From: a virus
Taxonomy: Duplodnaviria > Heunggongvirae > Uroviricota > Caudoviricetes
Length of the DNA stretch: 3,799 bases
IMG/VR virus record: IMGVR_UViG_2654587540_000009
Location: 1-3,799 of that record
Reading direction: 5' to 3' (one strand)
Shown: one piece after another, positions 1 through 3,799 of the stretch
Layout of the letters: every line of letters starts with the position of its first letter
How positions within the stretch are numbered: position 1 is the first letter of the stretch
Made by a program: the position numbers and the translations under genes
Notes under the pieces: generated by a model
The model's database searches: none
What the model saw: only the letters and a program-made list of their open reading frames with translations
Told to the model about the DNA's origin: nothing

Positions 1-37
1 ATGCCATTTGCTCGTTATTTCTGCATTTTCATAAACG
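1..37. repeat. Left arm of an exact 37-bp inverted repeat (partner 3179..3215); includes the outer half of crossover site A
   Basis: Reverse complement of 3179..3215 (cgtttatgaaaatgcagaaataacgagcaaatggcat) equals 1..37 (atgccatttgctcgttatttctgcattttcataaacg), 37/37. May extend left of the window. Confidence 0.95.
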
Positions 38-576
38 TTGGTTTGGGAGAAGGTTCGGCATTACCCGTTGGCGTGCCTGTTCCGTGGCCTTCCGCCACTC
101 CGCCAACAGGCTGGCTGAAATGCAACGGTGCCGCTTTTTCTGCTGAAGAATACCCGCAACTGGCAAAGGCTTATCCGACAAATAAATTGCCTGATTTACG
201 TGGTGAGTTTATTCGTGGCTGGGATGACGGGCGTGGTGTGGATGCGGGACGTGCCTTGCTAAGTCTTCAGGATGACTCTTTTGAAGCGCACAGGCATGAG
301 TCCTTTTTTTACGCGGGTATTTCTCGCAATGAAATACCATTAAAAAATCTTCCAAGTTCAGACGAGATGCTGACTTTAAGTTCTACAACTAATGCCTTGT
401 CCCCGGACGGTATTGATGCCACTAATTCGTTAATTGGTAATGATGATTACAACTGTCTGATTGAAGGAAATAAAAATAACAAACGAACAGCGACGGGGTT
501 GAGTACCAGTATTGTCGGTGCAGCAGAGACACGCCCACGTAATATTTCATTTAATTACATTGTGAGGGCTGCATGA
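1..576 (+). CDS. Side-tail-fibre C-terminal receptor-binding cassette (Sv-like), possibly 5'-partial; joined to crossover site A
   Basis: Translation ...NVGLGEGSALPVGVPVPWPSATPPTGW...RNISFNYIVRAA matches the C-terminal region of lambdoid side-tail-fibre proteins as I recall them (...PWPS... and ...FNYIVR.A ending). The frame is open from nt 1, and the first 12 codons (MPFARYFCIFIN) lie in the 37-bp repeat arm and are not fibre-like. ATGA overlap with the downstream tfa at 573..576. Confidence 0.8.
   Translation: MPFARYFCIFINVGLGEGSALPVGVPVPWPSATPPTGWLKCNGAAFSAEEYPQLAKAYPTNKLPDLRGEFIRGWDDGRGVDAGRALLSLQDDSFEAHRHESFFYAGISRNEIPLKNLPSSDEMLTLSSTTNALSPDGIDATNSLIGNDDYNCLIEGNKNNKRTATGLSTSIVGAAETRPRNISFNYIVRAA
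26..51. other. Crossover site A (gix/pix/hix-like 26-bp recombination site), core dinucleotide 38..39
   Basis: ttttcataaacg|tt|ggtttgggagaa has two 12-bp half sites of the form TTnnnnnAAAC(C/G) and GGTTTnnnnnAA around a 2-bp core, as in Gin/Hin/Cin crossover sites (gix is TTCCTGTAAACC-GA-GGTTTTGGATAA as recalled). Encodes I-F-I-N-V-G-L-G-E in the fibre frame. Confidence 0.8.
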
Positions 577-1178
577 TGTATAACGCCATCTTGAATAGTA
601 AATTTATTGCCACAAAGGCAGGAGAGATTACCGTTTATAACTATGACAGTGAGACACGGGAGTATATTTCTGCATCAACTGAATATCTTGCTGTGGGTGT
701 CGGTATCCCTGCATATTCCTGTTTAGATGCTCCTGGCACACATAAGGCTGGTTATGCAATCTGCCGTTCGGCAGATTTAAACTCATGGGAATATGTGTCA
801 GACCATCGCGGTGAAATCATCTATAGCACCGAAACAGGAGAATCGAAAGAAATCACAGCTCCGGGTGATTATCCTGAAAATACAACCACTATCGCCCCGT
901 TAACGCCATACGATGAATGGGATGGTGAGAAATGGGTAACAGATACTGTGGCACAGCATAGCGCCGCAGTAGGCGCGGCAGAAGCACAGCGTCAGTCACT
1001 GATTGATACTGCAATGGCTTCCATTAGTCTGATTCAGCTGAAATTGCAGGCCGGACGGAATCTGACGCAGGCAGAAACCGCCCGACTTAACGCTGCGCTG
1101 GATTACATTGACGCGGTGACGGCAACAGATACCAGCACCGCGCCGGATGTCATCTGGCCTGAACTGCCGGAGGCGTAG
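573..1178 (+). CDS. tfa: Tail fibre assembly protein (Tfa / Mu U-like chaperone)
   Basis: 201 aa. C-terminus ...DYIDAVTATDTSTAPDVIWPELPEA resembles the conserved Tfa C-terminus (lambda Tfa ends ...VDTSTAPDIEWPAVP as recalled). GAGGG Shine-Dalgarno at 564..568; start overlaps the fibre stop (ATGA). Confidence 0.85.
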   Translation: MMYNAILNSKFIATKAGEITVYNYDSETREYISASTEYLAVGVGIPAYSCLDAPGTHKAGYAICRSADLNSWEYVSDHRGEIIYSTETGESKEITAPGDYPENTTTIAPLTPYDEWDGEKWVTDTVAQHSAAVGAAEAQRQSLIDTAMASISLIQLKLQAGRNLTQAETARLNAALDYIDAVTATDTSTAPDVIWPELPEA

Positions 1179-1593
1179 GCCATTCAATATCTGGCGCACC
1201 GGAAGTATCGACCAGTTCCAGTGCGTCCAGATAATCCAGCCACAAATTATATTGCGCCAGTTCCTCACCTTTCAGACGACCAATAGCGGCTTTACCGGGC
1301 CATTGCTTACTGTTCATGTATTCGTTGGCTTGGTTAATTAGTAGCTGTCTTTCTGATTCAGTAATTTCAATAAGCTCTTCATGCGTGGGTGGAGGAATAT
1401 CTGCCCACGCAGGCAGCCCATCATCTCCGGCAATACGGATTTTTCCTTGTAGCGGTTCAGCCATAAACTCACTGATAATATTTTGATTTACTTCCTTAGC
1501 GTCTGATAAATCCCATCCCTCTGATTTATATTTATCAATCATATCCACAGGGAAAAAAGCATTATGCCTTGCGCTATAAACATATTCGTTCAT
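1150..1593 (-). CDS. tfa: Tail fibre assembly protein, second type (Tfa'), cognate to the minus-strand fibre
   Basis: C-terminus ...LDYLDALELVDTSGAPDIEWPTPPAVQAR carries the same Tfa motif. I place the start at the ATG 1591..1593 (MNEYVYSARH...); the track's GTG at 1600..1602 sits inside the AGGGTG Shine-Dalgarno-like sequence. The 3' end overlaps the plus-strand tfa by 29 bp (1150..1178), convergently. Confidence 0.8.
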   Translation of the reverse strand: MNEYVYSARHNAFFPVDMIDKYKSEGWDLSDAKEVNQNIISEFMAEPLQGKIRIAGDDGLPAWADIPPPTHEELIEITESERQLLINQANEYMNSKQWPGKAAIGRLKGEELAQYNLWLDYLDALELVDTSGAPDIEWPTPPAVQAR

Positions 1594-1613
1594 ATAAATC
1601 ACCCTGAATAAAA

Positions 1614-2276
1614 TTACTCACCAACAGCCCACCAACTGTAATTCATCGATACCGTGTCGCTGGTTGATGACGTTCTGTAAGCAGAATTAAAGCCGGTTAA
1701 CGTTGGGCCTTCTGCAGTCATCACGAACCCTCGCCCAGCGCCTAAAGGCGCACCGCCATCACCAGAATGAGTAAGCATGGCGCAGTCCGCTTTTTTGGGG
1801 AAAGGGATGCTGAATGTAATTCTCATTGTTTGCGTCGATAATGTCGGCGTAACCGCACCACGACCATATTGCAGGATTTTCCCGTTGGGTAATTTCATCC
1901 ATCCATCACCACTGGCAAAAGAGGCCATGTCCGGTATCTGATTTTCCCCTGTCCCCACATCCCGTTTTGCCGCTTCTCCCAAACCAAGGTTTTCGAGAGC
2001 CGTTTTCACCGTGCCATCCGATTTGATATCACCAAACGGATTCTTGCGGCTTAACAGCAGAGCACGAAGCGCGGTAAGCAACTGGTCGTTTCGCCCCTTC
2101 TCCAGGCTGGCACCGGATGCCTCCACCACGCTGCAAAGCTCCTCCTGCAACATATCAAAGTAGTCATCATCCAGATCGGTGGCAGGTGTGCCGGTCTGGG
2201 GGTTACCACGGGTAAAACCGTTCTTACCCGCGCCGAACTTATCCTTCTGCGCGGTTTTCGTGTCTATACGATGCAT
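1614..2276 (-). CDS. Tail fibre protein, 220 aa, with its own start; N-terminal ~96 aa outside and C-terminal ~123 aa inside the A-B invertible segment
   Basis: ATG at 2274..2276 preceded by GGAG (minus strand, 6-nt spacer) and an in-frame stop immediately upstream. C-terminal part contains ...[19 protein letters not shown]..., resembling the G-W-x-K-L-P-x-G-x-I-x-Q-x-G motif of phage fibre receptor-binding domains. Codons 93..101 (ALENLGLGE) are encoded by crossover site B. Confidence 0.8.
1974..1999. other. Crossover site B (internal, inverted relative to A), core 1986..1987, inside the minus-strand fibre gene
   Basis: ttctcccaaacc|aa|ggttttcgagag. The first 14 nt are identical to the reverse complement of A positions 38..51 (core plus inner half); the outer half fits the consensus but differs from A. 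Encodes A-L-E-N-L-G-L-G-E on the minus strand, with the core in the same codon phase as in A. Confidence 0.75.
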
Positions 2277-2328
2277 GGATTACTCCGGATATTTAAAAAT
2301 TACGTAGGTATGCGACGGGCAGAGTTTG
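2277..2328 (-). promoter_or_regulatory. AT-rich intergenic region with ribosome-binding site (and possibly a promoter) for the minus-strand fibre gene
   Basis: GGAG Shine-Dalgarno complement at about 2283..2286. AT-rich stretch (atatttaaaaattacgtagg) between the GC-rich block and the fibre start. No convincing -35/-10 pair could be fixed by eye. Confidence 0.25.
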
Positions 2329-2646
2329 TTAAGCACACACTCGACAACGGTGTCGCCCCAGATAACCATCACGCAGCAGGAACGAACGCAACTCCGCGGT
2401 GATGGCAGCCCGTATTTCCGGTGTGTCCGGCGTCACACGGATATGAAAATCCACCGTATGTGCCACCGGCCTGAACACATACAAATCAGAGCCTGCCACC
2501 GGGGCCAGTGGCCCGATATGTTGTCTTGCCGCCGTTTCCGTTGATTCTTCCGGAATGGGATTAATCAGGTCACTGCTGGCAATCATCACACCGACAGTCC
2601 CCGTTCCCATCCAGTGTCGGTATGTCCATGCGCGGGTAGAAGTCAC
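2329..2646 (-). CDS. Hypothetical phage protein (105 aa), possibly a frameshifted continuation of the upstream gp10-like ORF or a tail-completion remnant
   Basis: ORF in a GC-rich block where the opposite strand translates to Arg/His/Pro-rich antisense-like peptides. Overlaps the upstream ORF by 77 nt in a different frame. No recognisable motif. Confidence 0.2.
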
Positions 2647-2938
2647 CAGAGATCATCCGGTTCCCCTTCCCGTTGCGCTGGTTAGGGGCAATGCGTGTCA
2701 TAAAACCGGCTCGCTTTTTACTGGCTCTCGGCACCATGTAACCAATCGAACGAGCCAGGCGTCCGGTCTGATAACCGGGGTTTTCACCCGGTGCCGACCG
2801 CGCACGGCGCATCACCAGCCGACGGGCATCACGCATATGACGCTGACCAATCGTGACAAACGCCCGCCGGACACGGGCGCGGTTAAAGCGCATCTCCGCG
2901 GGCTGCTGAAAATCAACGTGCAAAAAGGAAGTCGTCAT
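2570..2938 (-). CDS. HK97 gp10-like head-tail joining / tail-component protein (possibly truncated or pseudogenised)
   Basis: Segment ...RRARSAPGENPGYQTGRLARSIGY... resembles the A-P-x-x-T-G-x-L-R-x-S-I core I recall for the HK97 gp10-like family; the expected downstream Y-A-x-x-V-E-F-G-T part is missing in this frame. The 26-nt overlap with the upstream adaptor-like ORF is typical of phage morphogenesis operons. Confidence 0.3.
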   Translation of the reverse strand: MTTSFLHVDFQQPAEMRFNRARVRRAFVTIGQRHMRDARRLVMRRARSAPGENPGYQTGRLARSIGYMVPRASKKRAGFMTRIAPNQRNGKGNRMISGDFYPRMDIPTLDGNGDCRCDDCQQ

Positions 2939-3168
2939 TGTTGCCTCCGTGACTCTGCCTACATTCGCCCAGCTCCGTACACTCCAGCAGCAGAAAGCGC
3001 CGCGCCCCGTTCAGATCGCGCTGACGTTTCACCCGGTACACACTGTCACCGCAGACCACCTCATAATCAGCGGTGATCCCCCGGCGGTAACGAATGGTGA
3101 TGTAATGGGTGATGGCGTCCCCGGTCTGCGCGGTTTCCTGCCAGGTGGTGGCACTGGTCTGGATAACC
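2913..3168 (-). CDS. Phage head-tail adaptor (head-tail joining) protein-like ORF; 5' end runs into the N gap, so partial
   Basis: ...THYITIRYRRGITADYEVVCGDSVYRVKRQRDLNGARRFLLLECTEL matches the I-T-I-R-Y-R ... L-L-C-x-E C-terminal signature I recall for head-tail adaptor proteins of HK97-like siphophages. The track's ORF continues through the Ns into the repeat arm (MMPFARYFCIFIN), but reading frame across the gap is unverifiable. Confidence 0.35.
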
Positions 3169-3190
3169 NNNNNNNNNNCGTTTATGAAAA
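3165..3190. other. Crossover site C (invertase-proximal); only the outer half 3179..3190 is readable, core and inner half fall in the N run
   Basis: cgtttatgaaaa at 3179..3190 is the exact reverse complement of A's outer half (26..37). By analogy with Mu and P1 the invertase gene lies immediately beside one crossover site. Exact extent depends on the true gap length. Confidence 0.55.
3169..3178. other. Run of 10 N (assembly gap or masked bases) at the predicted core of crossover site C
   Basis: Ten consecutive n characters in the sequence; true length and content unknown. Confidence 0.99.
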
Positions 3191-3215
3191 TGCAGAAATA
3201 ACGAGCAAATGGCAT
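3179..3215. repeat. Right arm of the 37-bp inverted repeat; includes the outer half of crossover site C, 29 bp upstream of the pin start
   Basis: Exact reverse complement of 1..37. Homology on the inner side cannot be assessed because 3169..3178 are N. Confidence 0.95.
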
Positions 3216-3244
3216 CATTCCTGCTTTTGTCAGGGGGATCTACC

Positions 3245-3799
3245 ATGCTTATTGGCTATGTACGCGTATCAACAAATGACCAGAACACAGATCTACAACG
3301 TAATGCGCTGAACTGTGCAGGATGCGAGCTGATTTTTGAAGACAAGATAAGCGGCACAAAGTCCGAAAGGCCGGGACTGAAAAAACTGCTCAGGACATTA
3401 TCGGCAGGTGACACTCTGGTTGTCTGGAAGCTGGATCGGCTGGGGCGTAGTATGCGGCATCTTGTCGTGTTGGTGGAGGAGTTGCGCGAACGAGGCATCA
3501 ACTTTCGTAGTCTGACGGATTCAATTGATACCAGCACACCAATGGGGCGTTTTTTCTTTCATGTGATGGGGGCCTTGGCTGAAATGGAACGAGAACTGAT
3601 TGTTGAACGAACAAAAGCTGGACTGGAAGCTGCTCGCGCACAGGGACGAATTGGTGGACGTCGTCCCAAACTTACACCAGAACAATGGGAACAGGCCGGA
3701 CGATTAATTGCATCAGGAGTTCCTCGCCAGAAGGTGGCGATCATCTATGATGTTGGTATATCGACACTGTATAAGAAGTTTCCGGTCGGAGATAAATGA
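3245..3799 (+). CDS. pin: Serine DNA invertase, Pin/Gin/Cin/Hin family (184 aa)
   Basis: MLIGYVRVSTNDQNTDLQRNA... N-terminus with the catalytic Ser in the VRVST motif, ...VVWKLDRLGRS... resolvase-fold core and a C-terminal helix-turn-helix (...QKVAIIYDVGISTLYKKF...). Closely resembles e14 Pin as I remember it. GGGGGA Shine-Dalgarno at 3233..3238. The upstream in-frame ATG at 3209 would add a non-conserved 12-aa extension and lies inside the repeat arm, so 3245 is preferred. Confidence 0.95.
   Translation: MLIGYVRVSTNDQNTDLQRNALNCAGCELIFEDKISGTKSERPGLKKLLRTLSAGDTLVVWKLDRLGRSMRHLVVLVEELRERGINFRSLTDSIDTSTPMGRFFFHVMGALAEMERELIVERTKAGLEAARAQGRIGGRRPKLTPEQWEQAGRLIASGVPRQKVAIIYDVGISTLYKKFPVGDK

Follow-up and report, generated by a model that had tools for sequence, protein, structure and literature searches.

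A ten-N run beside a Pin-type invertase in an Escherichia coli 912 scaffold is very probably a misjoin at a known e14-type crossover site

Introduction

The invertases of the Din family, among them Gin of phage Mu, Cin of phage P1 and Hin of Salmonella, act on their respective G, C and H segments at inverted 26-bp sites, in which half-sites ending in AAACC flank a 2-bp core, and in Mu and P1 the inversion switches alternative tail-fibre C-termini together with their matched chaperones. Closer to the locus described here is the P segment of the e14 element of E. coli K-12 with its invertase PinE, a Gin-like serine invertase; its layout comprises pin, a leader/stfE-type module, a tfa gene, an opposing tfa gene and an stfP-type gene, and both orientations are found among genomes (Plasterk & van de Putte 1985; Mehta et al. 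2004; PMC12529663). In K-12 cultures, even those grown from single colonies, the two orientations of the e14 segment occur at about 1:1 (PMC4272514), and recent work has linked P-segment inversion to phage defence (PMC12529663). The biology of e14-type P segments and their Pin invertases is thus already well described. Phase-variable inversions of this kind, quantified from reads, also break assemblies: coexisting orientations give rise to discordant read pairs and to graph branches at the inverted repeats (PMC4272514).

Here we describe an e14-type P segment in a draft genome of E. coli, in which a run of ten Ns separates a degraded prophage remnant from the start of a Pin-type invertase region. 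A preliminary description of this stretch had placed a further crossover site, called site C, at the Ns. The analysis below leads to another reading, to which we assign a probability of roughly 0.87, namely that the N run is a Velvet misjoin at a known e14-type Pin site, by which the invertase contig was attached to a small neighbouring contig on its wrong side and wrongly oriented to it.

Results

The stretch of DNA analysed (3,799 nt, hereafter the window) corresponds to bases 45-3843 of JWJM01000128.1 (GCA_000806195.1; E. coli 912, ST101). This scaffold is 107,961 bp long and consists of contig A (1-3212, 3,212 nt), ten Ns and contig B, on which the invertase gene is followed by genes for TetR, adenosine deaminase, Ham1-like and SIR2_2 proteins. 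The strain had been sequenced on a MiSeq (2x250 pairs, Nextera XT), and the reads had been assembled with CGE Assembler 1.0, which is Velvet-based (JWJM00000000; PMC4704421). The window holds the following elements, besides a baseplate-J fragment and a short ORF without a Pfam match:

1-576, + strand: Collar-domain tail-fibre module (Pfam)
573-1178, + strand, and 1150-1602, - strand: two opposed Caudo_TAP tail-fibre assembly genes (Pfam)
1614-2276, - strand: Gp53-like_C tail-fibre gene, 220 aa (Pfam)
26..51, no strand: complete invertase-proximal crossover site, TTTTCATAAACG TT GGTTTGGGAGAA, which adjoins pinE directly in L001, L002 and CH458
1974..1999, no strand: distal crossover site, TTCTCCCAAACC AA GGTTTTCGAGAG, within the StfP-type tail-fibre gene (from the inverted repeat and relatives)
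40..1985, no strand: actual invertible (P-type) segment between the 2-bp cores, with two alternative tail-fibre C-terminal modules and two chaperones
3245..3799, + strand: Pin-type serine DNA invertase, 184 aa, catalytic Ser10 in YVRVSTNDQ (Pfam Resolvase and HTH_7)

The invertase matches PF00239 (1.5e-51) and PF02796 (3.9e-13), its catalytic serine motif MLIGYVRVSTNDQ is read from 3245-3283, and RefSeq relatives annotate it as pinE. Its residues 1-181 match the Gin invertase structure 3UJ3 (E=4e-95), a full-length alignment in which many positions nevertheless differ. The gene layout is that of the e14 P segment, and the published e14 inverted repeat TTGGTTTGGGAGAAGG sits, identical, at 38-53. 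All the defining features that were tested were found, which makes this an e14-type P segment whose invertase belongs to the Gin/Pin family. It differs from its K-12 counterpart in segment length (about 1.95 kb, 40-1985, versus 1,797 bp), in its Collar-type module, which is another allele than that of e14 and has at most about 95% identity to most closed genomes, and in its surroundings, which are proA/proB and a TetR/deaminase/SIR2 cluster, whereas e14 of K-12 lies in icd. Unlike Mu and P1, it is a degraded prophage remnant with no functional phage.

The two 26-bp sites lie in inverted orientation, with 2-bp cores that read TT (26-51) and AA (1974-1999) on the + strand and with exact inverted repeats of 15 nt; over the whole window this pair appears as an inverted repeat of 33-52 against 1973-1992. 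We searched closed E. coli genomes for the junction expected from the flipped segment (1888-1987 joined to 3179-3278; in letters, ...CTTCTCCCAAACCAA|CGTTTATG) and found it in 832 of 5,426, in 6 of them at 100%. The chromosomes of the sister isolates CH458 (4,740,891 bp) and CH423 (4,740,904 bp) have flanks that are 100% identical, and their TTGGTTTGGGAGAAG repeats enclose 1,921 bp that lie in opposite orientations in the two, with the breakpoints in the homologous 15-nt repeats; therefore the real switch uses the sites at 26-51 and 1974-1999. These two are near-identical isolates from an Islamabad hospital and offer a clean natural case of switching within one lineage. The segment thus occurs in both orientations among these proxy genomes; for strain 912 the same is suggested by the positions of its contig ends, as described below.

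Two further relatives, L003 and L004, are 100% identical to the window over 1-1699 and then have an extra deletion that takes away the distal site and the stfP constant region. With an intact invertase and, judging from their sequences, a single site, their segment should be locked. Another site-like 26-mer, GGTCTGATAACC GG GGTTTTCACCCG, lies at 2765-2790, within the ORF 2570-2938 (no Pfam match), and scores 9/10 on the AAACC..GGTTT positions; by our estimate with equal base frequencies, chance alone gives about 0.11 such hits per window. A core of GG makes it incompatible with both real sites, whose cores are TT/AA.

The region around the Ns comprises three features:

1..37, + strand: stfE-type 'MPFARYFCIFIN' leader, outer flank of the invertase-proximal crossover site, in its contig A copy (the same genomic DNA as 3179-3215)
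3169..3178, no strand: ten Ns, very probably a Velvet/Pebble scaffolding buffer from contig A to contig B, a placeholder with no measured 10-nt gap
3179..3215, + strand: start of contig B, reverse-complement copy of 1-37, with the outer half-site CGTTTATGAAAA at 3179-3190

The Ns are exactly ten, at 3169..3178, and the junction as written in the scaffold is ...GGTCTGGATAACC, ten Ns, then CGTTTATGAAAA; its E. coli-specific pattern is GGATAACC..CGTTTATG. The bases that follow form an inverted repeat of 37 nt at 100% (3179-3215 against 1-37), within which CGTTTATGAAAA (3179-3190) is the reverse complement of the outer half-site TTTTCATAAACG (26-37). The preliminary description had located the Ns where the core and the inner half of a crossover site are to be expected, and its coordinates are right: the readable half-site 3179-3190 is an outer half only and ends right where the 2-bp core should start. 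It had also pointed out that the bases to the left of the Ns do not continue the inverted repeat, and we find the same, since in either orientation of the segment 3179 should be preceded by the 15 bases CTTCTCCCAAACCAA, while the scaffold has CTGGTCTGGATAACC.

The arrangement of the two contigs in the genome was obtained from relatives, whose contigs, including gap-free ones at 100% identity, were found by exact-protein look-ups. L002, a 190-kb contig with no Ns across the compared stretch, matches 1-3168 at 100% and 3179-3799 at 100% in reverse complement, with the invertase upstream of base 1 and the leader common to both. The closed genome of 18AR0366 (L001) has the same order, with contig B reverse-complemented upstream of base 1, and in both of them 3179 is preceded by CTTCTCCCAAACCAA, the reverse complement of 38-52, and the leader 1-37 is present as a single copy. 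A second draft, L005, is 100% identical over 1-3168 and continues beyond 3168. 18AR0366 was dropped as the sole stand-in for strain 912: it is 100% identical at 2250-3168 and 3179-3799 but carries a degraded allele of the segment (77-90%, with gaps). A further exact-protein look-up, with the StfP-type protein of 220 aa, gave only further standard arrangements among the matches listed, with no additional contig end that was informative. When 1-3168 was used as a single query, none of the 5,426 closed E. coli genomes reached more than 75% coverage, because a deletion junction near 2633 is nearly unique. This junction, at about 2633-2646 on the boundary of the baseplate-J fragment and the 122-aa ORF, marks the loss of most tail and baseplate genes; among the 5,426 closed genomes only 18AR0366 has it (100%, 2250-3168), and the remaining ones match one side only.

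Counted from the first base of the scaffold, contig A begins with 81 nt that recur, reverse-complemented, as the first 81 nt of contig B. Merging the reverse-complemented contig B with contig A through this overlap gives 6,529 nt, of which 6,528 match L002. Since contig B lies upstream of base 1 in L002 and 18AR0366, site C is the physical site 26-51 written twice, and the core and inner half that were supposed to lie under the Ns can be read at 38-51. An independent site C was therefore discarded as a candidate: its half-site at 3179-3190 is 26-37 again, duplicated in the text by the 81-nt overlap of A and B. A true duplication would have to explain the same repeat by two inverted copies of the leader and invertase around about 3.2 kb in strain 912, with a second complete site hidden in the gap. 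The 37-nt repeat does stand at both ends of the scaffold as written, and many E. coli genomes have several pin-like genes, in up to 5 places per genome. We nonetheless hold such a duplication to be highly improbable, given that (i) the left copy stops at scaffold base 1 after 81 nt, an overlap length that depends on k, (ii) past 3168 the three relatives that are 100% identical have the head-closure gene rather than a site, (iii) the reverse-complemented B joined to A rebuilds L002 at all but one position, (iv) a duplicated pin would collapse in the assembly and break the 104-kb contig B at the other repeat boundary, and (v) head-closure sequence adjoining the leader occurs in 0 closed genomes.

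We then compared the contig ends with a k-mer graph built for a mixture of both orientations of the segment. With nodes defined as in Velvet, k=97 was the one value at which a node starts at window position -43, which is scaffold base 1, and at this same k the node of the flipped junction starts at 1892 and its label begins exactly at 3179, the first base after the Ns. In Velvet the label of a node consists of the final nucleotides of its successive k-mers, so that the node's first k-1 bases are missing from the text (PMC3488206). L005 (GCA_965257815.1, CBDGQB010000029.1) starts at -46, as expected for SPAdes with K=99, and both starts, -43 (k=97) and -46 (K=99), trace to one branch, 52|53, the first base that differs between the orientations. 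L005 is an independent draft that also breaks at the invertase-proximal site, 99 nt before the orientations diverge. The drafts L005 and L006, which have both repeats, break at the site, and the relatives without the distal repeat (L003 and L004) were assembled straight across it; L002 kept both repeats and yet was assembled through, so that the break is not obligatory.

On these grounds we propose that the DNA preparation held both orientations of the segment and that the k=97 graph would have branched at 52|53, so leaving A and B unmerged. Read pairs from flipped molecules would link the segment to the invertase contig as A(+) then B(+), and the scaffolder Pebble, finding no graph path from the end of A, would have joined the two by a minimal N buffer. 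The estimated distance from A to B would be negative. The Velvet manual reportedly sets a minimum of ten Ns for any short or negative distance; no published statement of this minimum was found in our literature search. The text after the buffer would be a node label lacking its first k-1 bases, and so would resume exactly at 3179. Pebble has been described to bridge read-pair neighbours that lack a graph path by an N buffer, provided that 4 or more pairs support the join and that these make up 10% or more of the number expected (PMC2793427). The genomic order is pin reading away from the leader, the site at 26-51, the segment of about 1.95 kb and the distal site at 1974-1999, beyond which the constant part of the tail-fibre gene, prophage remnants and a complete head-closure gene follow.

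The same join might have arisen as a plain misjoin with no inversion heterogeneity in the culture, from Nextera XT coverage drop-outs and noisy pairs that mis-oriented contig A. Breaks are frequent in this assembly, which has at least 128 scaffolds, and L002 shows that the site can be assembled through. Three contig ends (-43, 3179 and 3072+96), however, match one k value to the base, and L005 breaks at the same branch with an offset that fits K=99. Moreover, the minimum number of pairs that Pebble needs would have to support A(+) then B(+), and only flipped molecules give such pairs; mixtures of orientations at about 1:1 are in addition documented for the e14 segment (PMC4272514). A join by noise of this kind appears unlikely, albeit less so than the duplication considered above, and we retain the misjoin driven by both orientations as the reading that fits the contig ends.

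The mixed-orientation graph leaves the end of contig A at 3168 unexplained. This end cuts a phage gene:

2913..3168, - strand: phage head-closure gene, C-terminal 84 codons, cut by the end of contig A and in no crossover site

In L001, L002 and L005 position 3168 is followed by TTCGCCCATGTCCGGAACG... / TTCGCCCATGTCCG, which belongs to the head-closure gene, and the same 200 bases (TTCGCCCATG...) follow in all three. The first 155 of these bases complete a 136-aa PF05521 Phage_HCP protein, of which the first 52 residues (MKIRQ...TWAK) are absent from the scaffold. As had been anticipated in the preliminary description, the adjacency of 3168 and 3179 is therefore one of the scaffold only, for the gap-free relatives continue differently after 3168, and the N-terminus of the adaptor-like ORF could not be trusted, for there the head-closure protein starts with 52 residues of its own. 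The ORF that spans the Ns, read as MMPFARYFCIFIN-XXXX-VIQTSATT..., is accordingly a false fusion, as the relatives complete a normal head-closure protein, and its frame is an accident of the 10-N length.

If k was 97, an end at 3168 points to a difference at position 3072 (3072 + k-1 = 96), a position that we predicted from the contig end before any allele was examined. Position 3072 differs in 5 of the 9 natural head-closure alleles sampled, and the allele of YD786 is identical over 3073-3202, which places a k=97 contig end exactly at 3168. Within these alleles (L009-L017), 3072 is among the most frequent polymorphic sites of the gene. The head-closure region is present in 1,065 of the 5,426 closed genomes, in some of them in 2-4 copies; the closest closed relative, 18AR0366, has a single copy, which counts against the idea of a second one. 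Contig A most probably ends at 3168 owing to a second prophage copy of the head-closure gene that is identical from 3073 on; our prediction is thus a further prophage in strain 912, one with a YD786-like allele.

We further examined site C as a crossover site in its own right, for which the bases to the left of the Ns would have to supply a half-site:

3157..3168, + strand: GTCTGGATAACC, candidate inner half, really head-closure coding sequence; 9/12 to CTCTCGAAAACC

It had been suggested that, were the Ns a placeholder, GTCTGGATAACC would be a plausible inner half. This did not hold: it is head-closure coding sequence and is followed by TTCGCCCATGTCCG in three gap-free sequences. The match of 9/12 to a real half-site keeps the correct register, and a score this high is reached at only about 0.15% of positions. 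In GTCTGGATAACC, however, the TC that all real half-sites have is missing, its partner half agrees with them at just 2-5/12, and the candidate site as a whole reaches 5/10 on the AAACC..GGTTT positions versus 9-10 for real sites. Its TT core is direct, not inverted, relative to the site 26-51, so that inversion would need mismatched cores. When the bases on both sides of the Ns were joined as a 200-nt query (3069-3168 with 3179-3278), the two halves were adjacent in 0 of 5,426 closed E. coli genomes, 1,785 of which carry at least one half, and among the contigs listed by the two exact-protein look-ups no head-closure/pin-leader adjacency was seen beyond the source scaffold. Closing the gap by proxy from the relatives yields unrelated sequence without a crossover half, which removes site C. 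The third crossover site under the Ns is no real feature but a scaffolding artefact, and under the misjoin explanation the 9/12 match of GTCTGGATAACC is a coincidence.

A more elaborate account keeps this 12-mer in play by taking GTCTGGATAACC|TT|CGCCCATGTCCG as a secondary ('quasi') Pin site, used in a subpopulation of strain 912 for a 3.1-kb inversion to the proximal site, with the Ns as a placeholder; in such molecules 3168 and 3179 would truly be separated by about 2 bp. Secondary crossover sites have reportedly been documented for the Cin invertase, in work of Iida and of Hiestand-Nauer, and to our knowledge these are the sole precedent for a recombination partner that matches so weakly. 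Quasi-sites are selected for a matching central dinucleotide, whereas the core of the present candidate is wrongly oriented and no junction speaks for it. Contig A does end on this very 12-mer. In our k=97 simulations of site-C recombinants, the AA core placed the end of contig A at 3168 as observed but gave a restart at AACGTTT (3177), and the TT core gave an end of A at 3172 and a restart at 3181, both off by 2 nt from the observed 3179; with either core, A and B would be direct neighbours in the graph, and their join would contain no Ns. The scaffold start at -43 fits the branch 52|53, not 43|44. To this are added the missing TC, the poor partner half and the direct TT core, the adjacency found in none of the closed genomes, and a mundane cause for the end at 3168, the polymorphism at 3072, predicted in advance. 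A quasi-site inversion is in our view extremely unlikely, and convergence with a second prophage copy is a far more likely cause of the end at 3168.

Discussion

Taken together, the order of the contigs in L002 and 18AR0366, the natural inversion at both real sites in CH458 and CH423 and the coincidence of the contig ends with a single k value point towards a misjoin of contigs A and B at the Pin site of an e14-type P segment. In the preliminary description the gap had been regarded as a possible indirect trace of ongoing inversion at site C. The first half of this idea stands in part: the gap is probably an indirect trace of inversion, namely the ordinary inversion of the P segment at its usual pair of sites. 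The second half falls with site C, since no new site is involved.

The contig ends found here, at offsets from the inverted repeats that depend on k, resemble the breaks that phase-variable inversions cause in other assemblies; the outcome differs in that a 3.2-kb terminal contig was flipped and attached through ten Ns, so that the text shows an ORF fusion and an additional half-site which are both false. As written, this 10-N join creates three false features, i.e. a third crossover site, a fusion of leader and head-closure ORFs, and an invertible unit of 3.1 kb, by which annotators of JWJM01000128.1, or anyone who counts shufflon sites from drafts, would be misled. Conversely, contig ends at exact k-offsets together with a flipped join supported by read pairs constitute a signature of an actively switching segment in draft genomes, and one that could be mined without raw reads. 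The quasi-site inversion, if true, would put head-closure coding sequence behind the stfE leader, and would show a chromosomal Pin invertase rearranging prophage DNA beyond its cognate segment.

With regard to the surroundings of the element, the invertase adjoins genes for TetR, adenosine deaminase, Ham1-like, SIR2_2 and putAbiC proteins (L002 1-5971; L006 3289-6620), a cluster that looks like a defence island, and the other end of the remnant abuts proA/proB.
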